Source: Candidatus Uhrbacteria bacterium
GTDB lineage: Bacteria; Patescibacteriota; Patescibacteriia; UBA9934; GWF2-40-263
Direction of reading: 5' to 3'
Assembly: GCA_016188475.1 (NCBI GenBank)
Contig: JACPHT010000008.1
Location: 150,192 to 214,191 of the forward strand
Length of the DNA stretch: 64,000 nucleotides
Both the position numbers and the translations under genes were made by a program. Positions 4,788-63,036 of the stretch are shown here, one piece after another. The notes under the pieces are model-generated. The model saw only the letters and a list, made by a program, of their open reading frames with translations, did not search any database and was not told the DNA's origin. The stretch's first letter is position 1. Each line of letters starts with the position of its first letter.

Positions 4788-5877
4788 ACATCGCGTCGCC
4801 AAAGGAAAAAAATCTGTATTTTTGAGCGACCGCTTCTTTGTACGCGCGCAAAACATTTTCTCTTCCAACAAAAGCTGAAACCAAAACCAACAATGTTGAT
4901 TTTGGTAAATGAAAATTCGTGATAAGTCCATCAATTATTTTGAAATCAAAACCTGGTTTGATAAATAAATTAACGTCACCTGTAAATGCGATAAAAGATC
5001 CTTCGCGGAGCTTACCCTGAGCAAAGTCGAAGGGCTCAGGATGACAACAAGAGGAAGCAACACCTTCAAGAGTCCGAACCGTTGTCGTTCCAACCGCGAT
5101 CACACGCCGTTTTTCTTTTTTTGCTTGATTGATTCGATCTGCAGTTTCTTTTGAAATCGAAACAAACTCGCTGTGCATTTCATGTTCTTCGATCGTTGCT
5201 GTTTTCATTGGACGAAAAGTTCCGATTCCAACATGAAGCGTTACAAATTCAAACTGAACGCCTTTTGATTTTAATTTTTCCATGAGATTTTCAGTGAAAT
5301 GAAACCCGGCTGTTGGCGCAGCAACAGAACCTGCCTCTTTTGCGTAAATGGTTTGATAATCTTCCAATCGCTCCGGCTTATTTTTGACGTAAGGAGGAAT
5401 CGGAATTTCGCCGTACTCATTTGCAAAAACGATAACGTCTTCTGGCGCGCGATCAAACTTCACTAAAACTATTCCGTCTGACTTTTTTTCAAAAACTTCA
5501 CAACAAAGTTTTTTAATCCCGTATTCGAGACAAATTGTCTGGCCGACTTGCACTTTTCTTCCTGGCCGCGCCATTGTTTCCCAAACATTATTTTCCCGAG
5601 CGCGCAACAAAAATATCTCAATCTCTGCTTTGACCTTTCCGACCTCTCGGTCATTTCCGACCTTTCCAATCATTCTTGCTCGAAAAACTTTCGTATCATT
5701 AAACACAAGTACGTCGCCTTCTTTAAGTTCATCAACAATCTCAAAAAATTTCTTGTGCTTCAACTTCCCTGTTTGCCTATCTAAAACCATTAGACGAGAA
5801 TGGTCGCGCGGCAAAATCGAATGTTGAGCAATCAATTCTTTTGGAAGATGATAATTGAATTCTTCAATTTGAGTCAT
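4777..5877 (-). CDS. queA: S-adenosylmethionine:tRNA ribosyltransferase-isomerase
   Basis: MTQIEEFNYHLPKELIAQHSILPRDHSRLMVLDR...VGTTTVRTLE; it carries an in-frame 9-bp repeat insertion at 5632-5667. Confidence 0.85.
   Translation of the reverse strand: MTQIEEFNYHLPKELIAQHSILPRDHSRLMVLDRQTGKLKHKKFFEIVDELKEGDVLVFNDTKVFRARMIGKVGNDREVGKVKAEIEIFLLRARENNVWETMARPGRKVQVGQTICLEYGIKKLCCEVFEKKSDGIVLVKFDRAPEDVIVFANEYGEIPIPPYVKNKPERLEDYQTIYAKEAGSVAAPTAGFHFTENLMEKLKSKGVQFEFVTLHVGIGTFRPMKTATIEEHEMHSEFVSISKETADRINQAKKEKRRVIAVGTTTVRTLEGVASSCCHPEPFDFAQGKLREGSFIAFTGDVNLFIKPGFDFKIIDGLITNFHLPKSTLLVLVSAFVGRENVLRAYKEAVAQKYRFFSFGDAMFIV
5632..5667. repeat. (GGTCGGAAA)n-family tandem repeat, in frame inside queA (encodes GKVGNDREVGKV)
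   Basis: Seen directly. Confidence 0.6.
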
Positions 5878-7436: not shown

Positions 7437-7518
7437 AAAGAGCGGTTGTATCGTGTCGTAGGGAACAACGGCGACAGTCCGATGGCCCGGAGACACGATA
7501 CAACCGCTCTTTTTTAAC
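7437..7518 (+). repeat. Long-stem hairpin element, copy 1, with conserved core GTCGTAGGGAACAACGGCGACAGTCCGATGGCCCGGAGAC; followed by a T-run, so it is a likely prfA terminator
   Basis: A ~20-bp stem (aagagcggttgtatcgtgtc / gacacgatacaaccgctctt) encloses the conserved core, then ttttttaacc. Confidence 0.6.
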
Positions 7519-18016: not shown

Positions 18017-18028
18017 AATATAGCATTG

Positions 18029-18118
18029 CCTGAGCCTGTCGAAGGCAGTAAAGATTATAGCCTGAGCCTGTCGAAGGCAGTAAAGATTATAGCCTGAGCC
18101 TGTCGAAGGCAGTAAAAA
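18029..18118. repeat. Three tandem copies of a 32-bp unit (CCTGAGCCTGTCGAAGGCAGTAAAGATTATAG); a related single copy lies at 58731-58751
   Basis: Seen directly; the copies are contiguous with no spacers. Confidence 0.7.
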
Positions 18119-18172
18119 ATACTTTAATTAAAAATAGTGGGAGTCTAAAAGACGCCAATACCACAAACTAAT

Positions 18173-20674: not shown

Positions 20675-21046
20675 TTATGACGAATCTGTCAATGTTGGCT
20701 TGACAAAAACAAGATCATCACTCGCACCAAACGTGAGGCCGGATCTGGAATCAATCCGATCAAAATTTCGAGCAACGAGTGGGCAGTAATGCTCAAATTC
20801 ACATTCGCCTTGTGGCTCGACTCCGCTGAAGGACAGAAGTACACGACGGTCGGAGATTCCAACCGACACCTCGACAATGGCCAGATCGGAACAATAAATG
20901 GCGTCCCGGTCATTGTCGTCCCAAATCTTGAGGATCGTCTGCCAACCCCACCATCTGGTGTTAGGTAGCCGTTCTTTCTCCACCCATGTCCGACTAGGGC
21001 GTGGGTGCTTTTTATTTTCGATAAAAAAACTTAATTCATATTTCAC
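20675..21046 (-). CDS. hypothetical protein; first gene of the GC-rich cassette
   Basis: ORF. Confidence 0.35.
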   Translation of the reverse strand: MKYELSFFIENKKHPRPSRTWVEKERLPNTRWWGWQTILKIWDDNDRDAIYCSDLAIVEVSVGISDRRVLLSFSGVEPQGECEFEHYCPLVARNFDRIDSRSGLTFGASDDLVFVKPTLTDSS

Positions 21047-21077
21047 TTAACTACCGATCGGGAGTTAAGTGTGATAA
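21044..21077. repeat. Palindromic element, copy A (CACTTAACT(A/C)CCGATCGGGAGTTAAGTGTGAT)
   Basis: 28-bp hairpin with one mismatch plus a TGTGAT extension. Confidence 0.7.
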
Positions 21078-21086
21078 AGTTTAATT

Positions 21087-21662
21087 ATGTCTAAAAACAT
21101 CTCTTCAAATTCTGTTCCATCTAGAATCTTCGATGTGCTCTTATCAGAAGCCGATGATCTTCTATTTTTATTTCATCATCCTCATGCAGTGTTACGAACA
21201 GTAGGAAATATTGAATCTGCACGTAACATGCTCGCACGAAAAGAACGAAATCTTCAACGAATTAAAAAAACAGAAATCAACCAGGCCTTGCAACGACTCA
21301 ATTCGCAAAAATTACTGCGGATAAGTAAAAAGGGTAATGAAATTTACTTCTTTTTGACTGAAAATGGCATAAAAGAGGGTTTGAAACGTACAATTCAAAA
21401 GAAGAAACAACGTCTTGCAGGCAAACGACGTTGTTACGTGAGTTTTGATATTCCTGAACAAGCAAGTTCTACACGGTGGGCATTAAGAAAACTTTTGAAA
21501 GATTCACACTTCAAAATGATTCATCTTAGTTTATGGAGTTCTGAATTCGACGTTGGAAAAGAAATGGCGGCGTTGATAAAAATAATGAGAGCCGAAACAT
21601 GGGTACACGTTTTCGAAGCAAGGGCTCTAACTTCCATTAACAAAAAAAGCAAAAACTCGTAA
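21087..21662 (+). CDS. hypothetical protein: an N-terminal winged-HTH-like region plus a C-terminal region with a Cas2/VapD-like sequence pattern
   Basis: C-terminal RRCYVSFDIPEQASSTRWALRKLLKDSHFKMIHLSLWSS resembles the Cas2 beta1-alpha1-beta2 core (YD[IV]...R.LRK.L...G.R.Q.SVFEC). It is flanked on both sides by the 38-bp palindrome. There is no cas1 or CRISPR array nearby. Confidence 0.45.
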   Translation: MSKNISSNSVPSRIFDVLLSEADDLLFLFHHPHAVLRTVGNIESARNMLARKERNLQRIKKTEINQALQRLNSQKLLRISKKGNEIYFFLTENGIKEGLKRTIQKKKQRLAGKRRCYVSFDIPEQASSTRWALRKLLKDSHFKMIHLSLWSSEFDVGKEMAALIKIMRAETWVHVFEARALTSINKKSKNS

Positions 21663-21693
21663 TCACACTTAACTCCCGATCGGGAGTTAAGTG
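21661..21693. repeat. Palindromic element, copy B (AATCACACTTAACTCCCGATCGGGAGTTAAGTG), between convergent gene ends
   Basis: Perfect palindrome seen directly. Confidence 0.7.
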
Positions 21694-21694
21694 T

Positions 21695-22609
21695 TTACAG
21701 TTGTCTCAAAACGTTCTTCAACATACGACATGCTTCTTCTGTGGTTTCGTATTTGATGTGATAAACAATTGCTGGATTTCCAAGCGCAAAATTTGAAATC
21801 ACTGAATCTTTTTTTGAAATAAGCACGATTGGTTTTTCAAACATGTAAGCGAGAACGAGTTCGCCACCAGCTCCCAAAGATGGATTTGAAACATCAGCTA
21901 TGAGCACATCACAATTTTTGATTTTATTTTCAGTCCAATCATAAACCGCGCGAACGTCACGCTCTTCGCGTGGTTTTTTATTTTCAGGATTATCACGAAA
22001 TGGAATTATTGGTTCACAACCTAATTCATCACACACACGACCAAGCGCTTCGTGAACAACTTTATCATCAGCCAAACCATTATTGTTTGTATACGATCCA
22101 GCTATGTAGGCTGATTTTACAGTTGGTTTAAGTGTTTTTGAATACACTCTATCGCGATTAAACTCAACATGTGCGTTTGCTAGTAAATACACATTGCGAA
22201 TTCCATTTTCAATCATCACGTTCCAACATTGCTCGCAACACCACCAATGGCCGTACAAATAAATATCCGATCCTGACGGATCAATTCCCGACTCATTTGC
22301 AACAGCAATTACCATTTGTTCTGCATGTCCTGGAGCGTCGTGTAAATGACACAAATCATATCCTGTTCCACTAGGACACTCCAACACAACTCGAGGACAA
22401 ACATGTCTCGTGCCAGAACCTTTATTAAACCCATTTCCGGCTCGAGTGAAAATTTTTCCGTCTCTAACTAACACTGCTCCAACTGGATACAACCTGTCGC
22501 CTGCACAATCCTCGCGTGCGCGCGCCGCTTCTTGCATGAATGGATCGTCCGCACTGACAAAATAAAAAACTTTTCCATCAGGCAAAAATGGATACTCTAT
22601 TTCTGGCAT
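21695..22609 (-). CDS. Fusion protein: dCMP (cytidine/deoxycytidylate) deaminase domain plus a nucleoside 2-deoxyribosyltransferase-like (Rcl/DNPH1-like) domain
   Basis: Zinc motifs HAEQMVI and PCxxC-type WWCCEQC in the N-terminal half. The C-terminal half has AYIAGSY...SLGAGGELVLAYMFEKPIVLI, matching the NDT-family Rossmann signature. Confidence 0.65.
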   Translation of the reverse strand: MPEIEYPFLPDGKVFYFVSADDPFMQEAARAREDCAGDRLYPVGAVLVRDGKIFTRAGNGFNKGSGTRHVCPRVVLECPSGTGYDLCHLHDAPGHAEQMVIAVANESGIDPSGSDIYLYGHWWCCEQCWNVMIENGIRNVYLLANAHVEFNRDRVYSKTLKPTVKSAYIAGSYTNNNGLADDKVVHEALGRVCDELGCEPIIPFRDNPENKKPREERDVRAVYDWTENKIKNCDVLIADVSNPSLGAGGELVLAYMFEKPIVLISKKDSVISNFALGNPAIVYHIKYETTEEACRMLKNVLRQL

Positions 22610-23117
22610 AAAAAATGTAGCAAAACTGCTTGATCACCAAGTTGAGTAACTTCATCCAATTTCAAATTTATTCTTCCAAATCCTGACGCAAGTGGCACGC
22701 CATCGCCAAACAAAACCGGCTCAACTGTAAGATAAATTTCGGTAACAAGCTTCTCTTTCAGAAACTGACTGTAAATTGACGACCCACCTGCGATCACAAC
22801 ATTTTCAACACCTTCTTTTTGCAAACGTTCAAGTAGTTTGCACGGTTGTTCGCTCGTAAATTCAACCTTCCCGCTTTCTTCCTTTGTCTCCAGCTGTCTT
22901 CCATTGTCCTCCCTTGTCATCACTATCGTCTTCCTCCCCTTCAACGGCTTTCCAATTGTCTCAAAAGTCTTTCGACCCATAATCAAAACTCCTATCTCTT
23001 TTGTTTTTTCAATAAAAAAACGCAAATCTTCTTTCGATGTCCAATCAAGTGACGTCTGACATTCATGCTCTGCTATTTTTCCGTTTGCAGAAATCGCGGC
23101 AAGTAAAATAATTTTCA
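22597..23117 (-). CDS. dihydrofolate reductase-like (RibD C-terminal/DHFR family)
   Basis: MKIILLAAISANGKI...IAGGSSIYSQFL...VTEIYLTVEPVLFGDG. Confidence 0.65.
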
Positions 23118-23161
23118 TAAAGATATTCTTCGTCGCTTCGCTCCTCAGAATGACGAAAAGA

Positions 23162-23996: not shown

Positions 23997-24006
23997 GTCA
24001 TATTGT

Positions 24007-24038
24007 GGAAAGGTCTGAAAGGACCAAAAGGTCGAAAA
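24007..24038. repeat. 9-bp repeat-family copy (GGAAAGGTCTGAAAGGACCAAAAGGTCGAAAA) in the thyA 5' region
   Basis: Seen directly. Confidence 0.5.
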
Positions 24039-24126
24039 TGTGGAAACAATTTAATTTGACCCCCATAATGTACCAGACATGAGACCAGTTTCCAACATCC
24101 TATCTTTCGGATAAAATGCCTACATT

Positions 24127-28502: not shown

Positions 28503-29418
28503 ATTGAAACGCTTCATCAGAACTCGAAATCCACTTAATTCTCGGGTCGCGTTTAAACCAAGTCATCTGGCGCTTCGCATAGTGTCTGGTGGCTTTTTTG
28601 GTTTCTTCGATCGCTTCATCAAGTGCAGTCTCGCCTTTGAGAAATGAACAAATCTGCCGATATCCAATTCCTGACATTGAATAAATTTCACATCCGTATT
28701 TGTCATTAAGTGAACGAACCTCATCCACAAGTCCGTTTTCGACCATTTCATCTACGCGCAAATCAATCCGCGCATTCAACTCTTGTCTGTCAACAAGAAG
28801 TCCGATTTGCAAAACATCATATCTTGGATTTCCTTTTGTTTGTTTTTCAAAAAACGTCTTGCCAGACAATTTCGTAACCTCAAGCGCGCGCACGATTCGA
28901 CGTTTGTTGTCTTTATCAATAACTTCAGCGCCTTTTGGATCGAGTTGCTTATACTCGGCGAACAAATCATCAAGCGAACGCGATTCCAATTCAACGCGAA
29001 GTTTGAAATCTGCCGGAATGTTTGTTAAATCAAAATTATCGATCAAAGATGAAACCCAAAGCCCTGTTCCACCAACAAGTATTGGAATACGTTTCCGTTG
29101 AATTATCTCGTCAATTTTCTGTTCAGAATATTTTTTGAAATCTGCAACTGAATAATCTTCATCAGGATCAACAAGATCAATCCCCCAATGTAGAATTCCA
29201 TCAACTGTCTTTTCCTCTCGGTCATATCCGACCTTTCCGACCTTTCGTTCCTTTCCGACCTTTGCCGTTCCAATATCCATTCCTCGATACACCTGCCGTG
29301 AATCTACACTTACCACTTCCCCGCTGAACTTTTTTGCAATTTCAATTCCAAGTCCGGTTTTTCCTGACGCTGTTTGCCCGACGATTGCGATAAGTTTAGG
29401 TAGCATACTTGTTGACAT
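28480..29418 (-). CDS. miaA: tRNA dimethylallyltransferase
   Basis: LIAIVGQTASGKT...VSVDSRQVYRGMDIGTAK; contains an in-frame 9-bp repeat insertion (KERKVGKVGYDRE). Confidence 0.9.
   Translation of the reverse strand: MSTSMLPKLIAIVGQTASGKTGLGIEIAKKFSGEVVSVDSRQVYRGMDIGTAKVGKERKVGKVGYDREEKTVDGILHWGIDLVDPDEDYSVADFKKYSEQKIDEIIQRKRIPILVGGTGLWVSSLIDNFDLTNIPADFKLRVELESRSLDDLFAEYKQLDPKGAEVIDKDNKRRIVRALEVTKLSGKTFFEKQTKGNPRYDVLQIGLLVDRQELNARIDLRVDEMVENGLVDEVRSLNDKYGCEIYSMSGIGYRQICSFLKGETALDEAIEETKKATRHYAKRQMTWFKRDPRIKWISSSDEAFQFISDFLA
29228..29266. repeat. (CCGACCTTT)n tandem 9-mer repeat, in frame inside miaA
   Basis: Seen directly. Confidence 0.6.
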
Positions 29419-35540: not shown

Positions 35541-35623
35541 AAACAGAAGCGATAGCGTCATGTCGTAGGGAACAGCGGCGAGGAGTCCGCTGGCCCGTAG
35601 ACATGGCATGTCGCTTCTGTTTG
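35541..35623 (+). repeat. Long-stem hairpin element, copy 2 (core GTCGTAGGGAACAGCGGCGAGGAGTCCGCTGGCCCGTAGAC)
   Basis: Same core as copy 1 in a different, self-complementary stem. Confidence 0.6.
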
Positions 35624-36955: not shown

Positions 36956-37017
36956 GTCATTGCGAGGAGGAGTAAAGCGACGACGAAGCAATCTGACCCA
37001 TTGGGTCATTAGATTAA
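36956..37017. repeat. Partial copy of the GTCATTGCGAGG...GCGACGAAGCAATCT nested-palindrome family
   Basis: Matches the copies at 45530-45612 and 55811-55891. Confidence 0.5.
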
Positions 37018-37096
37018 AAAAGAGCAGTTTGTACTATGTCGAAGGGAACAACGGCGAAGAGTCCGTTGGCCCGGAGACATGGTACAAACTGCTCGA
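37015..37096 (+). repeat. Long-stem hairpin element, copy 3 (core GTCGAAGGGAACAACGGCGAAGAGTCCGTTGGCCCGGAGAC); acts as a terminator for the minus-strand gene 37204-37815
   Basis: 20-bp stem; the A-run on the plus side is a U-run on the minus transcript. Confidence 0.6.
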
Positions 37097-37203
37097 GAGA
37101 CCCCTCGGCTCAACGCTAAACTCGCTCGGGATGACAAAATAAAAAAAGAACTCTGCTAAATGACCCAATGAAGGATCAAAGACACAAAGTCCAAAGAGTG
37201 AAC

Positions 37204-37815
37204 TCATTTGGGAACAACGAACACGAACCGATGGTCGAAACCCCAGCGATCGCCAGGGAGATCCTCGAATGTGTCGAGCCAGAGACCATCCTTGTCGTGG
37301 TCGATGTCGAACACGTTGAGAGCACCGCGCGAATCGGAAATTGCTTCCATGGCAATCTGGAACCACTCTCCTTTGGTCTGATCCTTGTAAAACAAACGAA
37401 GAGCGGGACCAACTTCTGCAGGACAGAGCTGGCCACCTTGAGCCAGAATAGCAGAATAGACTTCCTTTGTAGTTCCACCGTTTGGAAGCCCAAGCTCCGC
37501 AATAGTTGCGGAAGTAAGGTTAACCTCGACCTCCTTTTTTGAACACGTAATCTTCTTCAGAAGGTTCCTTGCCCAATCACTGATCTTAAATCCAGCTGAC
37601 TCAAGCGCCTTTTCGTAAGCCTCTGGGGTTTCGTGAAGACCGAGAGTCACTGTCCGGATAACACGGAACTTCGACGACGCCCACGGATTCTCCTTGCGAA
37701 GAAACCGTTTGAAGGCTGTTAGCCACATTGTTCCATCAGAACCAGCGAGCTTTGTCCAGAAATCTTTCATGGGTCCGGCCACTTCGGCAAGAGTACCACC
37801 GAGCATTTCAGACAT
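37204..37815 (-). CDS. hypothetical protein in a GC-richer islet
   Basis: ORF. Confidence 0.35.
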   Translation of the reverse strand: MSEMLGGTLAEVAGPMKDFWTKLAGSDGTMWLTAFKRFLRKENPWASSKFRVIRTVTLGLHETPEAYEKALESAGFKISDWARNLLKKITCSKKEVEVNLTSATIAELGLPNGGTTKEVYSAILAQGGQLCPAEVGPALRLFYKDQTKGEWFQIAMEAISDSRGALNVFDIDHDKDGLWLDTFEDLPGDRWGFDHRFVFVVPK

Positions 37816-38022
37816 GGTCGGTCTCCTTTTGACGCGCGAGGCGTCTATTTTGCCAGCGGGCTTCTGAACATTTACTTGCCGATAGGCAGGCTTGTCAGAT
37901 TTACCATGGCAAGGAATCGCCCTTTTTAGAGCAACTTTTTGCCAGAGTCAATCTGATTTTGATAGTCAAGTCTAGCATAAAATAGCCAGTTTGTCAAGAA
38001 AAAAAGACCAAAATTACCACTT

Positions 38023-41000: not shown

Positions 41001-41517
41001 CACCAAATATCTCTACATACTCGCGAACAATTTCTTCAACCCTTTCCGACTTTTCAGACCTTTCCGATCTTGCTCTTATTGCTTCATCAATCTCACCTTG
41101 ATATCCACCTGAAAGCGCGATCAATCCTTTTGAATACTGACGTAAAACTTCCAAATCAATTCTTGGCTTGTAATAAAATCCTTCGAGAAATCCGACTGAG
41201 GAAAGATGGATCAAGTTTCGATAACCTTCTTCATTTTGCGCAAGACAAACAAGATGAAATGGTTTTGTATCAATGTGCGCGCGTTTCAAATAACGTCCTT
41301 CGCGCGAAAGATAAAAATCAACTCCGATGATTGGTTTGATTCCTGCGTCTTTTGCTTTTTGATAAAATTCCATCGCACCATACATCGCGCCATTATCAGT
41401 AAGCGCCACAGAATCCATACCGCAATTTTTGACATGCGAAATAATCTCTTTGATTTTCGGAAGAGCCTCGAGAAGCGAATAGTGTGAATGGGTGTGAAGG
41501 TGGACGAAAGAGGACAT
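38023..41517 (-). CDS. dnaE: DNA polymerase III alpha subunit, with an in-frame 9-bp repeat insertion (RARSERSEKSERV)
   Basis: PHP domain MSSFVHLHTHSHYSLLEA...; length 1164 aa. Confidence 0.95.
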   Translation of the reverse strand: MSSFVHLHTHSHYSLLEALPKIKEIISHVKNCGMDSVALTDNGAMYGAMEFYQKAKDAGIKPIIGVDFYLSREGRYLKRAHIDTKPFHLVCLAQNEEGYRNLIHLSSVGFLEGFYYKPRIDLEVLRQYSKGLIALSGGYQGEIDEAIRARSERSEKSERVEEIVREYVEIFGDGNFFLELVDRPEIAEQESTNAQLIELGKKMNVPIVATKNTLYLKPQDAEAWKILNCIKGGKTLEHFERINPYDYDASMVSAQYMEERFADVPEAIENTRRIADRCLLELELGKWNFPKFEIPEGQTFRQVLTQRAEQQLAEKEGPLTDVMEQRLAYELEIIDQKGFCPYFLIVSDFINWARSNGIVTTTRGSAAGSLVSYGIGISSINPLTYELPFERFLNPERPSAPDIDTDFADNRRDEVLDYVRGKYGQEKVSQICTFGTMLARGSVRDVGRALGFPYPMVDEIAKLVPMGSQGFPMTLTRALNEAPDLKKKFDTDANVRRIIDLAKQIEGCARHVSIHAAGAVIAPTDLTDFTPLQIDTREGKVITQYEMHAVETAGLVKMDFLGIRNLSILGDAVALVKKLKGIEIDIERIPINDKKTFSLLAKGHTMGVFQLNGEGMTKYLMDLKPERVEDLMAMVALYRPGPIESIPEYIKRKHDTSLISYLDPRMEPILKMSYGVIVYQDDVMLTAIHLGGYSWLEADKLRKAMGKKIPAEMALQKIKLLEGFIAHGLTDDKARQLWKLIEPFAAYGFNKSHAASYGMVAYQTAYMKANFPAEYMTALMTAEAGDLEKIAEAVHECERLGIEVLSPDINESRKDFTFMNDKQIRFGLLVVKNLGEEVVASIITERKNNGPFKDLSDFAGRISHHAFNKKSLEALIKSGALDRFGERRQLFENVDRILMHNKSIQKEISSNQQSLFSSSPTVMDSAITLRETEPAGIQELLAWEKELLGLYLSAHPFEQSASVLGPLIVPCAKVKDHPSSKLIHCGGVITAIKEIITKKGEPMAFVSVEDATGVVELVLFPEVFTRSKFSLQLDQLTLVSAKVSRRNGELSLLANGLIGYTEDQLPQLVQMLSRGQWADPKTVVAQVPVITGTLSIALQGNPAPELVSRLREILQRSPGQTSVCLLVESGGRVRQIETDYSVFISDEIVDEIASLVGRQNVKVT
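41041..41069. repeat. 9-bp tandem repeat, in frame inside dnaE
   Basis: Seen directly. Confidence 0.6.
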
Positions 41518-41961: not shown

Positions 41962-41967
41962 AGAAAA

Positions 41968-42006
41968 AAGGTCTGAGAGGACGGAAAGGACGGAAAGGAC
42001 GGAAAT
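41968..42006. repeat. (GGACGGAAA)n tandem 9-mer repeat, abutting the pheT stop codon
   Basis: Seen directly. Confidence 0.6.
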
Positions 42007-42007
42007 G

Positions 42008-44470
42008 TTACGATCTTAGTATAGCATGAAATTCTTCTTCCAGCACATGACGAATTTTTTCAACTTCTTGATCAACTTCTTTTGATTCTAACGTTCGTTC
42101 ATCAGATCTAAATGACAAATGAATCGCGAGAGATTTTTTTCCTTCTTCAACCCCTTTGCCGCGATAAACATCAAACAATTCAATTCGTTCAAGAAGTGTT
42201 GAAGTTTTTCCTAACTTCTCTTCGATTGTTTCGTATTCAGAACGTTCATCAAGAACAAACGCTAAATCGCGTTTCACTTCTGGAAATTGTGGAAGCTGTT
42301 TGAATGATTTAATCGATGTGCATTTCGAAAAAAATTCTGGCTCATGAATGTCAATCAAAACGCAAACAGGATCCAAACCAAAATTTTTCACGAACATGTC
42401 GCTCACTTGCCCAATTTCGCCAACATAATTTTTGCCAATATAAATTGCTGCGAGACGGCCGTCGTGATAATGCGCGATGTAGTCAGCCGGATCGCGTGAA
42501 CGTTCGAGTGACCAGTCGTTGATTCCTAGTTCTCGCATCAATCGCGCAAGCGCGCCTTTTGCACGCAAAAATAATTCACGTCCATCTTTTCCATAGCAAG
42601 CAATCACAAGATGTAATGGTTCATCAGGCAGATTGCCTTTTTTTGGAATGTAAACTGGAGCAATTTCAAACAAATCCGCTTCTGGAAAACGATGCTGATT
42701 CTGTTCGACTGTTGTGAGCATGCTCGGAACAAGAGACGGACGCATAAATTCAAATTCACTACTTAATGGATTGCGCAAAAAAACCGCATAATCTTTTTTC
42801 ATTCCGTACGCAGTGAGCTGTTTTTCGGAAATGAACGAATACGAATATATTTCTGTAAAACCAGCGCCTTTAAGAACTTCTTTTGTTCGACGCTGAAACT
42901 TTATCGCTTGATCTTCTTGAATCAACTGAATTTCGCCAGCCGGAAAAACCGACGGAAAATTCGCATACCCATACACGCGAGCGATCTCTTCAACAAAATC
43001 AACTGATGCTTCAATATCATGGTCGCGCCAGTATGGGACAGTAATCTGAAAATATTTATTCACTGAGCGAAGGCCTGTTACCCCTTCTACAAGCTCAGGG
43101 AGTAACTGGCCTGAGTCGAAGGGTCCTTTTACAACAAATCCGAGTCGCTCCAGAATTTCAACCATCTTTTTGTCTTCCATTTCAATTCCCATGAGTGCGC
43201 GTGCTTTTTGCGGATCAAAATCAAACACGCGTGATTCGTAAGACTTTGCTTGTTCTGTCATAACTGACGAAGCGGTTTTTCCACCAGTGAGTTCAGTAAT
43301 GAGTTCCACAGCTCGCGCAAGCGCCGGCTCGGTAGATTCTGTTGAAAGACCTTTCTCAAATAACAATTGCGAATCAGAATACAAATTCAGCGCGCGCGCT
43401 GTGCGTCGAACAGAAACAGGATCAAACGTCGCGCTCTCAATCAAAACACGCGTTGTATTTTCGGTTGTCGCTGTTGCTTCCCCTCCCATTACTCCTGCGA
43501 CCGCAACAACTTTTTTCGCATCAGCAATCACAAGCATATCATCTGAAAATTCATAATCCTTTCCATCAAGCGCTTTCATTTTTTCACCTTTTTTTGCTTT
43601 GCGAACAATAATTTTTTCACCATCAAGTTTGTCAGCGTCAAACGCATGAAGCGGCTGGCCGTATTCGTGTAAAACGTAATTTGTAATATCAACGACATTA
43701 TTTATCGGACGATGGCCAGCAAGCAGTAAACGTTTTTGCAACCACCACGGCGACGGCCCGACTTTTACGTTTTCAATCAAAATGGCGGAATATTTCGGAC
43801 AAAGTCTTGGTTCTTTAACTTCAATCGTAAACCTATCATCATCTTCTTTCAGACCTTTCAGACCTTTCAGTCCTTTCAGACCTTGTTCTGTAACAACCGC
43901 CCCTTCCCTCGCCTGCCCAACAATACTCATGCAATCAACACGATTACTCGTTACTTCAATATCAAAAATAGTGTCGTCAAGTTCAAGCGCTTTCGCAATT
44001 GACGTTCCGGGTTTTGCAGAAGTAAGTTCTGTTATATCCCAAATCTCATGATATCCATGTGGCAACTTTTCAAAACCGATTTCTTCAACAGCGCAAATCA
44101 TACCATGACTTTCTACTCCACGAATTTTTGTTTTTGCAAGTTCAACCAAATCCCCTTCTCCGTGCCATTTAACTTTTGCCCCAGGAAGTCCCACAACCAC
44201 TCGTTGTCCTTGCGACAAGTTCACACCTCCGCAAACAATTTCAACAGTCCCATGTCCAACATCAGTTAGAGCGATCTTTAGCTTGTCAGCGTTTGGATGC
44301 GGCTTCACTTCTTTTACAAAACCAACGACTATTTTTTCAAATCGCTCTGAAAGTTGATCCATCCGCTCAACAGAATTTCCGACAGCAGTTGTTTTCTTCG
44401 CAAATTCTTCCGGCGAAAGATCAGTGTCAAGATATTCTTTAATCCAATTGTAGGAAGTAAGAATGTTCAT
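42008..44470 (-). CDS. pheT: phenylalanyl-tRNA synthetase beta subunit, with an in-frame GLKGLKGLKGLK insertion
   Basis: tRNA-binding domain, B3/4, B5 and FDX-ACB architecture. Confidence 0.9.
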   Translation of the reverse strand: MNILTSYNWIKEYLDTDLSPEEFAKKTTAVGNSVERMDQLSERFEKIVVGFVKEVKPHPNADKLKIALTDVGHGTVEIVCGGVNLSQGQRVVVGLPGAKVKWHGEGDLVELAKTKIRGVESHGMICAVEEIGFEKLPHGYHEIWDITELTSAKPGTSIAKALELDDTIFDIEVTSNRVDCMSIVGQAREGAVVTEQGLKGLKGLKGLKEDDDRFTIEVKEPRLCPKYSAILIENVKVGPSPWWLQKRLLLAGHRPINNVVDITNYVLHEYGQPLHAFDADKLDGEKIIVRKAKKGEKMKALDGKDYEFSDDMLVIADAKKVVAVAGVMGGEATATTENTTRVLIESATFDPVSVRRTARALNLYSDSQLLFEKGLSTESTEPALARAVELITELTGGKTASSVMTEQAKSYESRVFDFDPQKARALMGIEMEDKKMVEILERLGFVVKGPFDSGQLLPELVEGVTGLRSVNKYFQITVPYWRDHDIEASVDFVEEIARVYGYANFPSVFPAGEIQLIQEDQAIKFQRRTKEVLKGAGFTEIYSYSFISEKQLTAYGMKKDYAVFLRNPLSSEFEFMRPSLVPSMLTTVEQNQHRFPEADLFEIAPVYIPKKGNLPDEPLHLVIACYGKDGRELFLRAKGALARLMRELGINDWSLERSRDPADYIAHYHDGRLAAIYIGKNYVGEIGQVSDMFVKNFGLDPVCVLIDIHEPEFFSKCTSIKSFKQLPQFPEVKRDLAFVLDERSEYETIEEKLGKTSTLLERIELFDVYRGKGVEEGKKSLAIHLSFRSDERTLESKEVDQEVEKIRHVLEEEFHAILRS
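43848..43884. repeat. (CAGACCTTT)n tandem 9-mer repeat, in frame inside pheT
   Basis: Seen directly. Confidence 0.6.
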
Positions 44471-44473
44471 AAT

Positions 44474-45520
44474 TTAAAACTGCTTCACAAATCTCAAATC
44501 ATTTTTATATAACACACGAATGTCATCGATTTTAATTCCTTCACGCATCATGAGTGTTCGCTCAACTCCCCAACCAAAAGCGAATCCGGAATAAACTTCA
44601 GGATCATGTCCGCCGGCTTTGATTACATTTGGATGAACCATTCCGGCGCCTCCAAGTTCAAGCCAACCACCTTTGCATAAACGGCAATTTCCATTTTCAT
44701 TTCCACCGCAGACTCCACATGTGATATCAACTTCGAAACTCGGTTCTGTGAATCTAAAGTGATGCGGGCGCAAACGCGTGCGTCTATTGGGTCCAAAAAA
44801 TGTCTTTGCAAAATAATCTAGAATTCCTTTCAAATGAACAACCGAGATATTTTTATCAATCATCAATCCTTCAAACTGATGAAACATCGGGATATGGCTT
44901 ATATCAATCTGACGACGATACGTCCGATTGATATTTATAATGCGAATCGGCGGCTTTGTAGTTTCCATCACACGCACTTGGGAATTTGAAGTGTGAGGTG
45001 TTAAAACTATTTTCCCTTTCTTTCCTTCAGGCAAATCAACAAAAAACGTTTCCCAATCATCGCGAGCTGGATGATCTTTCGGCATGTTAAGAGATTCGAA
45101 AACGTAATAATCCCAATCTATCTCTGGAGCGCGCACTGAAGTAAAACCTACACGCGCGAAAATGTCAGTGATCTCCGAGATGGCTTGTGTAACAGGATGA
45201 AGATGACCTTCGGATGGAAATTTTCCAGGCTCTGTTACGTCAATCCATTCTTGGTCAAGACGAGAACCAGGATGTCTCATATCAAGCTCCGATTCTTTTT
45301 GTCCGTAAGCGGTTTCTAGCGCGTCTTTTATTTCATTAGCCAACTTGCCGATTGCTTTTCGTTCTTCATCAGCAAGAGTAGCAACATCTTTGAGAAGCGT
45401 TTTGAGTTTTCCTTTGCGTCCCAAAAATTCATTTTTTACTTCTTCAAGCGCAACATGATCTTTCACATCGCGTAAAGTGTTTTCAAAATCTTTTTTTAAT
45501 TGCTCCAATTCAATTTTCAT
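44474..45520 (-). CDS. pheS: phenylalanyl-tRNA synthetase alpha subunit
   Basis: Class-II motifs. Confidence 0.9.
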   Translation of the reverse strand: MKIELEQLKKDFENTLRDVKDHVALEEVKNEFLGRKGKLKTLLKDVATLADEERKAIGKLANEIKDALETAYGQKESELDMRHPGSRLDQEWIDVTEPGKFPSEGHLHPVTQAISEITDIFARVGFTSVRAPEIDWDYYVFESLNMPKDHPARDDWETFFVDLPEGKKGKIVLTPHTSNSQVRVMETTKPPIRIININRTYRRQIDISHIPMFHQFEGLMIDKNISVVHLKGILDYFAKTFFGPNRRTRLRPHHFRFTEPSFEVDITCGVCGGNENGNCRLCKGGWLELGGAGMVHPNVIKAGGHDPEVYSGFAFGWGVERTLMMREGIKIDDIRVLYKNDLRFVKQF

Positions 45521-45529
45521 ATTATTTTT

Positions 45530-45612
45530 GTCATTGCGAGAGAGCGCCAGCGACCGAAGCAATCTCTTTGCTTAGATTGCTTCGTCGTCACTACGTTCCT
45601 CCTCGCAATGAC
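45530..45612. repeat. Nested palindromic element GTCATTGCGAG...cgaagcaatct-loop-agattgcttcg...CTCGCAATGAC, between pheS and rseP
   Basis: Seen directly. Confidence 0.65.
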
Positions 45613-45617
45613 GCGGA

Positions 45618-46727
45618 CTAAATGAGTGATTTAATCGCTCCTAATATCTCATCTCCAAAATTTACAAAATCTTTATAAGTCACAAGAACAACAAGAACCA
45701 TAAGCAACAGGAATCCTAAATTGTGAACTGCTGTTTCTATTTTCACATTGACGTTTCTTCCGCGCAACTTTTCGATAATCAAAAACATCAAGCGTCCGCC
45801 ATCAAGCGCCGGAAACGGCAGAACATTTATTACAGCAAGATTGATTGACAAAAGCGCTGTGAATTGTAAAAGATGAATAATTCCAAGCGCCGCAACTTGT
45901 CCTGTTAAAACAGCAATACCGACAGGACCTGAGAGATCGACTCCAACGCCTTTTCCAGCAATTAAACTTCCAATAATTCCAATAAACGCCGCGACAATCG
46001 CATATGTTAACTCCACGGTCGTTGTAACTCCTTGCCAGATTGCCTGAAAAAAAGGATACGACACAAAACCTGTTAGCTCAAATCCAAGTCCTACGCCAAC
46101 AAGATCTGTTCCTTCAAGCGGCTTGGAAGTCAAAACAAAAGTTTTACTAGGTTCGTCTTTTGCTTGAGTGGCAAGTTTTATTTCGCCCAATCCTTTTTCT
46201 AAAATATAATCTCGCGCGTCTTGAGCTGAATTGAAAACTTGTCCGTCAATAGAAACAATACGATCGCCTTCGTTCACACCGGCTTCAAAAGCCGGAGATT
46301 TTTCCAAAACTGTCATGATTGTAAGTTCTGGTTGATTAACTCGAGCAGACTTTGGCAAGTTGTTATCAACAACGCTCGGCAAACCAACCATAAATCCGAT
46401 TGAAAAAAGAACTGCCGCAAGAACTAAATTCATTGCAACACCAGCTATCAAAACAGAGAAACGTTGCCAGATTTTTTTTGACGAAAAACTGTCCGGATCT
46501 TCTTTGTGATCGCCAGACTCGCCTTTGATTCGCACAAACCCGCCAAGCGGAATCCAATTGATCGAATATATTGTTTCTCCGCGTTTTATTCCAAATAATT
46601 TTGGCGGAAATCCAAATCCAAATTCTTCAACTTTCATTCCAGTTTTTTTAGCAACCAAAAAATGTCCGAGTTCGTGGACAAAAACGAGCAAAGATAAAAC
46701 GATGATGAAAATCAATAATGTCAGCAT
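45618..46727 (-). CDS. rseP: RIP site-2 metalloprotease (RseP family) with PDZ domain
   Basis: HELGHFLVAKK HExxH motif. Confidence 0.85.
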   Translation of the reverse strand: MLTLLIFIIVLSLLVFVHELGHFLVAKKTGMKVEEFGFGFPPKLFGIKRGETIYSINWIPLGGFVRIKGESGDHKEDPDSFSSKKIWQRFSVLIAGVAMNLVLAAVLFSIGFMVGLPSVVDNNLPKSARVNQPELTIMTVLEKSPAFEAGVNEGDRIVSIDGQVFNSAQDARDYILEKGLGEIKLATQAKDEPSKTFVLTSKPLEGTDLVGVGLGFELTGFVSYPFFQAIWQGVTTTVELTYAIVAAFIGIIGSLIAGKGVGVDLSGPVGIAVLTGQVAALGIIHLLQFTALLSINLAVINVLPFPALDGGRLMFLIIEKLRGRNVNVKIETAVHNLGFLLLMVLVVLVTYKDFVNFGDEILGAIKSLI

Positions 46728-55785: not shown

Positions 55786-55810
55786 TGATTATGAAACAGT
55801 CGCAAAATAT

Positions 55811-55891
55811 GTCATTGCGAGGAGCGAAGCGACGAAGCAATCTATGCGAATTAAGAGATTGCTTCGCTCCCTTTTGGTCGCTCGCAATGAC
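55811..55891. repeat. Nested palindromic element (GTCATTGCGAG family); it overlaps the 5' end of the track ORF for the pilin gene
   Basis: Seen directly. Confidence 0.65.
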
Positions 55892-57410
55892 AAATAGGAT
55901 TATTTTTTTATTTCTTTCTTTGTTCATAATTTTCGCACCGATTAGAACTTTCGCGGCTTCGACTTGCTATTGTTATTTCGGAGAAAAAAATGATTGCGCA
56001 CAAACATCTGTAGATGAAAATGCGATTATTGATGAATGTCAGCTCACATGCGAAACAAAATATCAAGACACTTTCAAAAGTGTAGATTTCACTGACGAAG
56101 CAGGTGGAGCAAACGATGTATTGGCACTAATGGATTGTTCATCAGCTCACGCAGACGCAAATGAAGCAGCAACAAAACCTTTCCAAGGAGGCGTTATTCC
56201 AAAATTGAACGTGGATATTCCAACAGTCACCTTTACTCCAGTTCTTCAAAAAGGCGGAAACTTATCAATCAATTTTTTAGCTGACTACATTCAGGGCGTT
56301 TATATTTATCTTTTATCAATAGCGGCAATCATCGCCGTAGTTTATATGATGATTGGAGGTTTGAGGTGGGTGCTTGCGGCTGGAGGCGCATCAAACATTG
56401 GCGAAGCAAAAACAATGATAAAAAATGCTGTGATCGGACTTGTTTTATTATTAAGCGTTGTTCTTATTTTAGAAACCGTAAACCCGCAACTCGCAACATT
56501 TAACCCATTTACAATTGAACGAATTCAAGAAGTAACAATTGATGAACAACAACATGCGCAAGATGCTGAAGAAGAATCTCAAGAACCTACAACACCTACT
56601 CAAGTACCAGCACCTTCAGGAACAGAAGGAACAAAAGTTTCTCTTGCATATTCAGATGGTGGAAGATTAAAAATGGAATATATCCAATTACCGCTTGATG
56701 CTGGCGATGAATATATCACTCCGCCACGCGTTTGCACTGTTCCTGTCCCTTCTGAACCAGCTTCATTGAGTGGTGTTGAAATAAATACAAAGTTTCTTGG
56801 TAATCTAGATTGTAATATCTCAAAACAAACGAAAAATAAAAAACGACCAGATAGTCAGATCAAGATGGTTATTCTACATCAAGGTTTTAAAAGCGATGGA
56901 GGACAAAATGGAAGTATGTGGTTCCAAAATTATGTTTATGGAACAACTGTGGTGTGCAAAAAAGAAAAATCTGGTGTGTTTAATTACAAAGCCTGCCAAC
57001 GAAACGGACAAAAATTGGTAAAACAGCCGACATTAAACCAAACGCCAATCGGAAGTCATTTTGCTGTAACTTTAGGTGGAACGATCTATCAATTAGCTGA
57101 TGTTGGACATATAATGAACCATTGCTGCGCGGAAAACAAAATTTCGGTTGGAATCGATTTGCAGTACGACATCGAAGGTGGAAAAAATGTATATTCAGAT
57201 TCTCAATATAAAAGTCTAGCAAAACTTATCAAAGGACTTAGTGAAAAATATAAATTTCCAATTGACGACAGCACGATAAAAGGCCATTGCGAACTTGGGA
57301 AGCATTCTGATCCTCCAAATTTCGATCTTAAAAAACTCGGAAACTTAATGGGCGTAACATTGGACCCAGGTCAGCATGGGAATGCAAAATGCAGCTGGGT
57401 CGCCTCATAA
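55887..57410 (+). CDS. TrbC/VirB2-like pilin domain protein fused to a C-terminal N-acetylmuramoyl-L-alanine amidase (amidase_2/PGRP-like) domain
   Basis: Signal peptide MTNRIIFLFLSLFIIFAPIRTFAAS; hydrophobic pilin-like segment (YIYLLSIAAIIAVVYMMIGGLRWVLAAGG); C-terminal ISVGIDLQYD and KGHCELGKHSDPPNFD amidase-like motifs. Confidence 0.55.
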   Translation: MTNRIIFLFLSLFIIFAPIRTFAASTCYCYFGEKNDCAQTSVDENAIIDECQLTCETKYQDTFKSVDFTDEAGGANDVLALMDCSSAHADANEAATKPFQGGVIPKLNVDIPTVTFTPVLQKGGNLSINFLADYIQGVYIYLLSIAAIIAVVYMMIGGLRWVLAAGGASNIGEAKTMIKNAVIGLVLLLSVVLILETVNPQLATFNPFTIERIQEVTIDEQQHAQDAEEESQEPTTPTQVPAPSGTEGTKVSLAYSDGGRLKMEYIQLPLDAGDEYITPPRVCTVPVPSEPASLSGVEINTKFLGNLDCNISKQTKNKKRPDSQIKMVILHQGFKSDGGQNGSMWFQNYVYGTTVVCKKEKSGVFNYKACQRNGQKLVKQPTLNQTPIGSHFAVTLGGTIYQLADVGHIMNHCCAENKISVGIDLQYDIEGGKNVYSDSQYKSLAKLIKGLSEKYKFPIDDSTIKGHCELGKHSDPPNFDLKKLGNLMGVTLDPGQHGNAKCSWVAS

Positions 57411-58706: not shown

Positions 58707-58760
58707 GCCCTTCGACTTCGGTAAAGTTATTGCCTGAGCCTGTCGAAGGCCATAACTTTA
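58707..58760 (+). terminator. Hairpin containing the TTGCCTGAGCCTGTCGAAGGC repeat unit, downstream of radA
   Basis: agcccttcgac ... gtcgaaggcc inverted repeat. Confidence 0.35.
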
Positions 58761-58787
58761 ACTGCGCTCGAGATGACGCGATGTATA

Positions 58788-60839: not shown

Positions 60840-60967
60840 AATTTTAATTATGGTAGTCGTTTGTTTCAGTCAATGCAAGGTTCATCAATCAAAAATTTTT
60901 AACTTTTTCCGTATTTGAATGAGTAGAATTATACTAAACAAAATAAGAATCCTTAAAAAAGTTCAAA

Positions 60968-61000
60968 CACTTAACTCCCGATCGGGAGTTAAGTGTGATT
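60968..61000. repeat. Palindromic element, copy C (CACTTAACTCCCGATCGGGAGTTAAGTGTGATT), upstream of recG and downstream of the tRNA cluster
   Basis: Seen directly. Confidence 0.7.
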
Positions 61001-62289: not shown

Positions 62290-63036
62290 TTACATATTCC
62301 CTTTCGCGATCACGAGTCCCCACACGCTTTTCACACCATTCTCTTTCAAACATCGAGCCGCGGAATCCATTGTCGCACCGGATGTAAAAACATCATCGCA
62401 CAACACAACTTTTTCTGGTAACGAAGAGATCCTTCGGCCTTCGGCCTCAGGATGACAATCGGATGTATTTGTCACGTTAGGATTAATCGCAAACAATCCA
62501 TCAAGCTCGCCTAGTTTTCTTACTTCGTGAGATTTTTGCGCCTGTGAAGATGTCTGGCGAGTTCGAACCAATAAATCGTAAACGGGTTGATTATAAATCT
62601 GTCCGCACCAATCTGCCAAAACTCCTGCCTGATCAAAACCACGTGATCGTGTTTTGAAACGGTGAAGAGGAACCGGCGCAAAAACAAAATTTGAAAACGG
62701 TGGTTGAAGCGCTGGAGCTGCTCGAATAATCCATCGAAACAAAACATCGTTCACTGTTTTGTCGCAGATATATTTCCATTGATGAATCGCTTCGCGCACG
62801 ACCGGATTTCCGTAATGAGCAAAAACAGAAAGCCCATCTAAAAAACTTTCGCTTCGACAATCTGAACAAACAAACGACATCGAACCTTTTCCGCAAAACG
62901 GACAACCAAATCGAACTGGTGCCGGCCACCAAGTTGTCGAACATGTTAAACACCAAAGGGTGCCCTCAGTGTGGCACCCTAAACAAAAACGCGGAAATAG
63001 AGAATTTATTGCCAGTTGGCCGATGTGACTTTCCAT
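62290..63036 (-). CDS. comFC: ComF family phosphoribosyltransferase-like competence protein
   Basis: N-terminal Cys-rich zinc finger; C-terminal PRTase motif VVLCDDVFTSGAT. Confidence 0.75.
   Translation of the reverse strand: MESHIGQLAINSLFPRFCLGCHTEGTLWCLTCSTTWWPAPVRFGCPFCGKGSMSFVCSDCRSESFLDGLSVFAHYGNPVVREAIHQWKYICDKTVNDVLFRWIIRAAPALQPPFSNFVFAPVPLHRFKTRSRGFDQAGVLADWCGQIYNQPVYDLLVRTRQTSSQAQKSHEVRKLGELDGLFAINPNVTNTSDCHPEAEGRRISSLPEKVVLCDDVFTSGATMDSAARCLKENGVKSVWGLVIAKGNM

Follow-up and report, generated by a model that had tools for sequence, protein, structure and literature searches.

A palindromic element that recurs at gene junctions of Candidatus Uhrbacteria bacterium (assembly GCA_016188475.1, contig JACPHT010000008.1, positions 150,192-214,191 of the forward strand; this whole stretch of 64,000 nt is called the window below) is probably a selfish, non-coding repeat of the repetitive extragenic palindromic (REP) type, made of an inverted pair of hairpin units tagged with CGTC or TGTC and spread, as we infer, in trans. 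The window was compared with related genomes at the same junctions, and one genome per species was scanned with the pattern GTCATTGCGAG-N(8-24)-CGAAGCAATC, which specifies 21 bases. The genome scan yielded at least 120 loci, and a scan of IMG/VR yielded at least 120 predicted viral contigs. The anatomy of the family was derived from 72 full elements of 70-139 nt, drawn from the genome loci and the window, while element ends and flanks were tested on 116 copies, viral ones included.

In the window, the outer arm GTCATTGCGAG occurs exactly at 36956 (+), 45530 (+), 45612 (-), 55811 (+) and 55891 (-); the search also allowed one mismatch. These five exact matches compare with 0.04 expected, and none of 100 shuffles reached five. 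The inner arm CGAAGCAATCT is likewise exact at 36984 (+), 45555 (+), 45574 (-), 55833 (+) and 55856 (-). The base preceding GTCATTGCGAG in the five arms is T, C, T, T and T, and the arms carry a CTC, CTA or CTG tail. Copy 1 (83 nt, 45530-45612, transcribed on the - strand) lies between rseP (Peptidase_M50) and pheS and has its arms at 45530-45565 and 45574-45612, around an 8-nt loop. Copy 2 (81 nt, 55811-55891, transcribed on the + strand) is flanked by a DsbA-like thioredoxin gene and an Amidase_2/T4SS_pilin gene, with arms at 55811-55843 and 55856-55891 around a 12-nt loop that is unrelated in sequence to that of copy 1. As RNA, the full copies fold at -40 to -48 kcal/mol with z-scores of -6.6 to -8.1 (copy 1, -44/-48 kcal/mol and z -7 to -8; copy 2, -42.9 kcal/mol and z -6.6); as DNA, they fold at -26 to -27 kcal/mol with z-scores of -5.7 to -6.6 (copy 1, -27 kcal/mol and z -5.7). 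With exact arms at both levels and such stable folds, the family of nested palindromes described in an earlier, sequence-only reading of this DNA is borne out, as are its two full copies and their gene contexts. The partial copy that it placed at 36956-37017 has the outer arm and amounts to one complete arm, of the type called II below (copy 3, 36956-36997, +, GTCATTGCGAG-GAGGAGTAAAGCGACGA-CGAAGCAATCT).

Comparison with relatives separates filled from empty sites. Two genomes, L121 and L122 (PheS 83% and 80% identical), share the gene order of the window (tyrS, rseP, pheS, pheT, a small open reading frame (ORF) and dnaE), and in both a 4-nt overlap joins the rseP stop to the pheS start, reading CTCATATGAAA. 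Aligned with them, the window has an extra block of 101 nt (45521-45621, -) that consists of TTAGTCCGC, the 83-nt core and AAAAATAAT. The block gives rseP a new TAG stop (45620-45618) and leaves the pheS ATG intact, so that the overlap is now replaced by a 95-nt structured spacer. Copy 1 begins 5 nt past the rseP stop codon, and the pheS start codon follows 9 nt downstream of the element on the - strand; the element is thus as near the upstream stop as the downstream start. At copy 2, relatives show both states. The site is empty in L129 and L130 (amidase 77% and 75% identical), where it reads TAACTATGCGGCGAGCG, encoding MRRALL..., and it is filled in L128 and L131, where the element stands at the same position as in the window, right after the ancestral ATG, which is kept. 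The inserted block of the window spans approximately 55794-55895 (+), directly after the ancestral ATG at 55791-55793, and comprises 17 nt (AAACAGTCGCAAAATAT), the core and ~4 nt, its right boundary being inferred from the protein alignment and not exact; the net gain is ~99 nt, in frame and stop-free. Copy 3 falls within a 1.17-kb stretch downstream of dnaE that is missing from relatives: from dnaE to the next gene there are 1189 nt in the window vs. 12-23 nt in L126 and L127. The empty orthologous sites for copy 1, and the empty and filled ones for copy 2, show that the element is an insertion into gene junctions of this Uhrbacteria lineage.

The insertions left no target duplication, as direct repeats of 2-8 bp at the element ends were at or below expectation in the 116 copies; copy 1 has at most an ambiguous duplication of 2 bp (AT). 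In the relatives closest in PheS, L132 and L133 (89% identical), the rseP-pheS junction holds a different palindromic insert of ~100 nt, with GTAG-headed units of the form GTAGCCGCAGGC...GCAAGCTTGCGGCTAC (608-706 in L132 and 334-432 in L133; units GTAGCCGCAGGCTTTAGCCTGCG ... CGCAAGCTGAAGCTTGCGGCTAC), and the RseP C-terminus is also altered. Set beside copy 1, this insert indicates that the same junction was hit at least twice, independently, by different palindromic repeats. Two ideas about the flanks were rejected. Insertion into pre-existing hairpins does not hold in general, as complementarity between the flanks is limited to the position next to the core, although a few loci (L005, L079) look so; a flank motif AGTC(C)GC with an A-rich run is shared by copies 1 and 2 but not by copy 3 or the other Patescibacteria copies.

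Both full copies lengthen the longest ORF of the downstream gene. According to the sequence-only reading the element supplied the first ~35 codons of two ORFs, which is right for the amidase (34 codons) and wrong for pheS, where the false extension is 14 codons (MLRSLALSRNDKNN). Among the best 120 PheS homologues, most are 348 aa long and nearly all cover 96% of the 362-aa ORF, i.e., from MKIELEQ, placing the true pheS start at the ATG at 45518-45520 (-), which aligns with the starts in L121, L122 and L124. The NCBI amidase of the source genome (P0121, 100% identical, 507 aa, MTNRIIFLF...) begins at Met35, P0125 has the same MTNRI start, and element-free orthologues begin at the equivalent signal peptide (MRRALLIF...). 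By its protein matches the window belongs to Candidatus Uhrbacteria (Patescibacteria), P0121 being an Uhrbacteria protein. The annotated amidase ATG (55887-55889, +) lies inside the right outer arm (CTCGCAATGAC) and opens a predicted signal peptide, MTNRIIFLFLSLFIIFAPIRTFAAS; the ancestral ATG at 55791 remains upstream of it, in frame and with no stop between. In one public gene call, P0122 (550 aa), the reading frame runs across the element as MKLSQNMSLRGAKRRSNL..., an extension that recurs because the DNA element is present, and orthologues do not keep it as protein. From these alignments, the N-terminal extensions appear to be artefacts of longest-ORF start calls, in agreement with the earlier suspicion that a non-coding element inflates them and that the downstream Met residues are the real starts.

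Across the collected elements, units follow the plan (C/T)GTC-AT-NNN-GAG-[small variable hairpin]-CGA(A)-N'N'N'-AT-C, which in the main family becomes (C/T)GTC-AT-TGC-GAG-[variable hairpin, often GCGAAGC-like]-CGAA-GCA-AT-C(C/T). The symmetry ends 1 nt beyond the 11-mer. Of 144 ends, 98 have C and 37 have T at this position (-1), which makes the tag CGTC or TGTC; this outermost position pairs across the element in 72% of the 116 copies, and pairing further out is at chance. After GCAAT comes a tail whose first base is C (97% of copies), the second C or T and the third A or C; it tends to match on both arms. The two triplets within an arm are complementary and covary between the main family (TGC/GCA) and sister families from the same loci and the window (CGC/GCG, CCT/AGG, TCT/AGA, TAC/GTA and GGC/GCC). 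A complementary 5-mer was found within 45 nt of 23 of the 59 non-TGC heads, vs. ~4% by chance. The variable middle is usually a second small hairpin of changing sequence, often with a GAA loop; a middle stem of at least 4 bp occurs in 26% of arms vs. 7% of shuffles, in many different sequences. The commonest middle is GCGAAGC, a mini-hairpin DNA motif noted for extreme stability (PMC13037366). Arms come as type I (GAG-hairpin-CGAA) or type II (GAG-GA-hairpin-GA-CGAA). An inverted partner accompanies 98 of 147 arms. Of 60 dimers, 43 consist of one arm of each type and just 2 have identical middles, with spacers of 10-83 nt; mixed dimers with a sister family also occur, e.g., ATTGC with ATCGC.

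The nested palindrome is thereby best read as two REP-like units in inverted orientation, tail facing tail. Taking the arm as the unit follows from the covariation at family level, not from the arm energies of the window copies. The full element can form either one long hairpin or two hairpins side by side, and for the window copies nearest-neighbour energies favour only the long inter-arm hairpin. In Chloroflexus (L006, 1300-1960) and Sphingobacterium (L092, 2729-2849), whole left arms follow one another head to tail every 50 nt and one right arm closes the array; stuttered partial heads (GTCATTGCGA x4, 17-18 nt apart) are present as well. These arrays and stuttered heads suggest slippage or abortive copying at the tagged end.

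Further arms of the sister families lie in the window. The generic head GTCATNNNGAG occurs 12 times vs. 1.27 expected; two of these occurrences (13799 and 39492) seem coincidental. Arms with other triplets are found at 5035-5045, 23144-23154, 37125-37135, 58767-58777 and 62446-62456, all on the - strand, in the forms GTCATCCTGAG...CGAAGGATC, GTCATTCTGAG...CGAAGAAT, GTCATCCCGAG and GTCATCTCGAG. One of them (23111-23154) sits between the thyA stop and the DHFR start, another operon junction. Another is a degenerate arm at 37097-37135 (-, GTCATCCCGAG...CGAGGGGTCTC), whose head at 37135-37125 was found by the GTCATNNNGAG search. It may be the partner of copy 3, with a hairpin repeat at 37022-37094 between the two arms, a pairing made plausible by the mixed-family dimers seen elsewhere.

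The element is near letter-identical in more than 20 phyla, across the at least 120 genome loci. Carriers among the Pseudomonadota include Bradyrhizobium (many), Sphingomonadales, Rhodospirillales, Rickettsia/Tisiphia and several Gammaproteobacteria. Outside that phylum it occurs in Desulfobacterota, Campylobacterota (Helicobacter rodentium), Chloroflexota, Bacteroidota, Ignavibacteriota, Patescibacteria, Planctomycetota, Verrucomicrobiota, Omnitrophota, Nostoc (Cyanobacteria), Spirochaetota, Gemmatimonadota, Armatimonadota, Zixibacteria, Latescibacterota, Atribacterota and Bacillota. The pattern is also carried by at least 120 predicted viral contigs of IMG/VR; plasmids and GenBank phages gave only 6 and 3 matches, all weak and partial and none of them annotated. 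Dimers of type I and type II lie between co-directional genes in 22 cases, convergent genes in 9 and divergent genes in 3, and the type II arm is upstream in 9 and downstream in 13 relative to transcription, i.e., without orientation bias, in a tally that used crude ORF calls and is indicative only. No protein family recurs beside the elements: the largest cluster, an ABC/UvrA-type ATPase, adjoins 7 of 120 loci. Nor was a gene resembling a REP-associated tyrosine transposase (RAYT) seen in the scanned ORFs of the 64-kb window or beside elements in the 120 loci of 8 kb. Pfam scans of ~46 window ORFs found no Y1/HUH domain; they otherwise hold housekeeping genes and one rve-type transposase-like ORF (1016-1897, -), which has HTH_32/HTH_23 and a weak rve_3 integrase core and is the sole transposase-type gene among the scanned window ORFs.

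How the element changes over time can be seen at copy 2, where the window, L128 and L131 carry orthologous copies. In pairwise comparison, the two arms, including their family-variable middles (69 nt), are 98.5-100% identical, while the loop (12 nt) is 50-75%, the amidase 5' end (64 nt) 66-75% and the dsbA 3' end (41 nt) 68-88% identical. The drift of the loop shows that enough time has elapsed, and the arms have not drifted. Across the three genomes, the 69 arm nucleotides have neither synonymous-type nor compensatory changes, which argues against constraint on a protein and against constraint on structure only, and the loop codons alter amino acids; the pattern thus points to constraint on the nucleic acid, not the peptide. 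Two explanations remain, repeated correction from other copies (gene conversion) or selection for the exact sequence. Gene conversion is an idea long since raised for REPs. Frozen arms around a free loop suggest a sequence-specific process at work. One speculative version, which we think rather unlikely, is a pan-bacterial, gene-less mobile hairpin whose arms are copied, repaired or converted by a widely distributed putative sequence-specific enzyme, or which the host has adopted as a recognition site. At the same low probability, candidates for the enzyme would be a host HUH/Y1-type nuclease, a replication or repair factor, or a phage-borne enzyme. If true, this would account for near-identical 33-nt arms in more than 20 phyla, including tiny genomes of the candidate phyla radiation (CPR) and viral contigs, as well as for drift in the loops but not the arms.

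The design of the element is that of the CGTC-tagged REP superfamily (Di Nocera, De Gregorio & Rocco, 2013, BMC Genomics 14:522; PMC3733652), which includes Neisseria dRS3 and Rickettsia RPE-4 and RPE-6. As far as described there, both have an unpaired CGTC/TGTC tag at the unit end (CCTC also in the superfamily), a stem that opens and closes with A-T pairs (AT-TGC...GCA-AT) and a short C(C/T)A or CCA-like tail. Both form mostly inverted dimers, often of unlike units and with a variable spacer, lie mainly between co-directional or convergent genes, and occur in several phyla with no linked transposase, and in both, copies at ORF N-termini were judged non-coding. The same paper reports CGTC-tagged REPs from 5 phyla, mainly in alpha-proteobacteria and also in Bacteroidetes, Spirochaetes and Rickettsiales, a range far narrower than the more than 20 phyla found here, Patescibacteria and predicted viral contigs included. 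It gives the peptides VIPAKAGIQ/LDSRLRGND for CGTC-1 (including Neisseria dRS3 and Rickettsia RPE-6) and VIPGLDPGIH/DGRVKPGHD for CGTC-3. The ATTGCGAG sequence and its peptides (VIARSEATKQS, DCFA..LAMT) are missing from the supplementary tables of that paper, including those on intragenic REPs. By sequence, the ATTGCGAG...CGAAGCAAT unit appears to be a separate family within the CGTC-tagged superfamily. A literature search with the two 11-mers returned unrelated primer matches only, one with the translated peptides returned nothing, and one on the CGTC-1 and CGTC-3 peptides, dRS3 and AntiFam returned nothing specific.

Other known repeats share part of this design. As in the REPs and bacterial interspersed mosaic elements (BIMEs) of E. 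coli and Pseudomonas, and in REPINs (REP doublets forming hairpins) with their RAYTs, short palindromic units stand in inverted pairs, intergenic within operons and co-transcribed, with no target duplication and with the hairpin plus 5' tetranucleotide that Y1/HUH transposases recognise. REPs are, however, normally species- or genus-specific and co-evolve with a REP-flanked RAYT gene, whereas the present sequence hardly varies from phylum to phylum. Like the Rickettsia palindromic elements (RPEs), this one is tolerated in reading frames, copy 2 being in frame and stop-free and a sister element lying in pheT; unlike them, copies 1 and 3 are intergenic, and the conservation of copy 2 can be explained without its putative translation. 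Miniature inverted-repeat transposable elements (MITEs) such as Correia/Nemis, ERIC and RUP are of similar size, also carry terminal inverted repeats, and likewise occur in many copies that are co-transcribed and give long RNA hairpins. Unlike them, it has no target-site duplication and no parent insertion sequence (IS) was seen, and it is a modular hairpin dimer with single arms and arrays. Several other identities were rejected. Neither copy has the T run of an intrinsic terminator, the hairpin being followed by AAAAATAAT (copy 1) or AAATAGGA (copy 2); the GTTRRRY/RYYYAAC ends of an integron attC are absent; and hammerhead and twister ribozymes are contradicted by absent core motifs and no Rfam match. 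Against Rfam 15, with gathering and E-value thresholds, only three tRNAs pass in the window, the best matches of the element reaching at most 19 bits with E > 1, and a promoter scan at copies 1 and 2 of the window gave nothing above chance.

The sequence-only reading took the position in 5' leaders as a hint of regulation. A structure in the pheS and amidase leaders that is dedicated to cis-regulation or RNA stability and acts on translation initiation or mRNA decay for the gene downstream would suit the very stable hairpins, the burial of the annotated amidase ATG in the outer stem of the copy 2 hairpin and the conservation of arms in three orthologous copies. It would also suit the start of copy 1 at 5 nt past the rseP stop, where E. 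coli REPs affect translation (PMC12306157). Such a role is nevertheless unlikely and the hint was not upheld, because the same junctions in close relatives do without the element, their genes simply overlapping or adjacent, while the identical sequence adjoins unrelated genes in more than 20 phyla and has no orientation bias against gene direction (9 vs. 13). There is also no Rfam family, and conservation of sequence without compensatory changes is unlike that of a structure-only RNA. For copy 2 only, the insertion could instead be coding, in the manner of Rickettsia, and add a basic extension of 32 aa from ATG 55791 (34 aa from ATG 55785) in front of the signal peptide. Retention of the ancestral ATG, which overlaps or abuts the dsbA stop, allows translational coupling; the insert is a multiple of 3 and stop-free in all three carrier genomes, one gene caller runs straight across it to give P0122 (550 aa), the ATG now annotated lies sequestered in an 11-bp stem, and a sister palindromic element lies in frame inside pheT, adding 20-24 aa missing from relatives. 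We nonetheless consider a coding role distinctly unlikely. The 69 arm nucleotides lack synonymous differences across the three genomes while loop codons alter amino acids, element-free orthologues start at the signal peptide, signal peptides are normally N-terminal, and the conserved arms are stop-free in 5 of 6 frames anyway.

Perfect terminal inverted repeats, small size, many copies and insertion polymorphism between species are also what a classical MITE would show, i.e., an IS deletion derivative mobilised by a DDE transposase through binding to the 11-bp terminal inverted repeats, and the window does hold a DDE (rve-type) transposase-like ORF at 1016-1897. This origin is improbable given the missing 2-8 bp target-site duplication in 116 copies and the lack of any transposase that recurs beside elements in 120 loci. 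The internal palindromes of the arms, moreover, covary across sister families, which fits recognition of a hairpin and not of a plain double-stranded end, and single arms and head-to-tail arm arrays exist. No parent IS with the same ends was seen among the 120 loci, no systematic search of an IS database having been made. E. coli BIMEs bind gyrase, IHF and Pol I. The element might by analogy be a double-stranded DNA site for a conserved host protein (e.g., a nucleoid or topoisomerase factor), kept by host selection. Its four ATTGC/GCAAT half-sites of alternating orientation, the conservation of sequence across phyla and in orthologous copies, and the absence of orientation bias agree with a binding site. 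That explanation is still the most doubtful of all, since the element is patchy among genomes and absent from orthologous sites, there is no known candidate protein, and the complementary changes of half-site triplets in sister families speak for intrastrand base pairing and against a fixed contact with protein.

We therefore return to a selfish REP-type repeat. Copies would be produced or moved in trans, and the sequence-specific enzyme responsible would have the folded single-stranded arms and the CGTC tag as its recognition signal. The best model is a HUH/Y1 transposase (RAYT or IS200/IS605-like) acting on single-stranded DNA, a candidate class suggested by the tag-plus-hairpin design, by stable mini-hairpin motifs in the DNA and by the lack of target duplications. 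Between lineages the element would travel on phages and other transferred DNA. Once inserted, it would be co-transcribed with the operon and form the hairpin of -40 to -48 kcal/mol, which by analogy with E. coli REPs may protect upstream mRNA. REPs within 15 nt of a stop codon lower translation of the upstream gene, as shown in work cited by PMC12306157 (its ref. 17). By the same analogy copy 1, 5 nt after the rseP stop, might lower rseP translation and uncouple the downstream gene. Such mRNA effects are plausibly by-products and not a dedicated leader function.

Several observations weigh against this reading. The mobilising enzyme remains putative, and the evidence for movement consists of presence and absence between species. 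The extra blocks (101 and ~99-102 nt) exceed the palindromic core by 18-21 nt, and the added bases are not common to the copies. For single arms of the window the fold energy is only -1.6 to -5.6 kcal/mol, which shuffled sequences match. A purely selfish, decaying insertion would not be expected to keep its arms at least 98.5% identical in orthologous copies whose loop and neighbouring genes diverge. Finally, the unit lacks the 8-9 bp stem and 4-5 nt loop that PMC3733652 gives for CGTC-1 to -4. It has instead 5 Watson-Crick pairs (ATTGC/GCAAT) around an interior of 12-25 nt with GAG/CGA(A) and a second small hairpin; the conserved GAG/CGA(A) positions could form G.A pairs. What sets the ATTGCGAG...CGAAGCAAT unit apart from CGTC-1 to -4 is the description and the supplementary tables of that paper, not consensus sequences.

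The window holds other repeats. A second family, at 7441-7503, 35548-35611 and 37022-37094 and also at loci L254-L293, is a hairpin of ~70 nt with the conserved apex GTCG(N)AGGGAACA(A/G)CGGCGA(NN)AGTCCG(N)TGGCCCGGAGAC. Its lower stem varies with compensation (4 pairs among the 3 window copies), and the apex stem shows a switch from A-T to G-C. A 20-base core pattern found it in 40 metagenome contigs, making 47 distinct sequences with the 3 window copies counted; there was no occurrence in IMG/VR and no Rfam match. Some copies lie within GTCAT-headed arms (L262, L279), and the flanking A/T runs have no fixed side relative to the apex. In pheT (42008-44470), an in-frame insertion of 20-24 aa, KGPFDSGQLLPELVEGVTGLRSVN (43058-43129, -), is missing from two orthologues, and its DNA consists of palindromic units of the CCCTGAGC...GTCGAAGGG type; it is an RPE-like coding insertion in an essential gene. 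A 32-nt unit, ATTGCCTGAGCCTGTCGAAGGCAGTAAAGATT, occurs as three tandem copies and as dispersed or inverted copies (18025-18120, 58729-58760, 2248-2277 and 5013-5050). It has the CCTGAGC...GTCGAAGG core of the pheT insert, a motif that is the inner hairpin of one ATTGCGAG arm in L069.

The 1.17-kb stretch downstream of dnaE also holds an ORF of 203 aa (37204-37815, -) with no Pfam match, richer in G+C by eye than its surroundings. Upstream of it (37816-38022) are a promoter-like TTGACA...TAGACT and AAGGAG, and it is probably an acquired gene adjoining the repeat cluster. A perfect palindrome, CACTTAACTCCCGATCGGGAGTTAAGTG, is present in three copies (21044-21075, 21662-21697 and 60965-61000), two of which bracket an ORF (21087-21662) with a PaaX_M (Cas2-like) domain. 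Runs of 9-nt period, (GACCTTTCC)n and its complement, lie at 5626-5674, 24006-24048, 29203-29263, 41039-41072, 41967-42005 and 43843-43885, some of them within genes, as GLKGLKGLKGLK in PheT and ERSERSEKSER in DnaE.

While the kind of element, a CGTC-tagged REP-type repeat, was known, the anatomy of this family, its presence in the CPR with clean empty sites, and its breadth across more than 20 phyla and viral contigs are new. Filled and empty sites are cleanly resolved here in a CPR lineage. In practical terms, repeats like these lead to wrong start codons and spurious hypothetical proteins in the annotation of metagenome-assembled genomes, and the arm pattern could serve for masking them. 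The frozen orthologous arms might be the one point to surprise a specialist. Since they suggest a sequence-specific process, the presence of the element can be correlated with that of protein families, which makes the question testable. They sharpen a question open since 2013: what moves the transposase-less CGTC-type repeats, and what keeps their sequence constant across bacteria.

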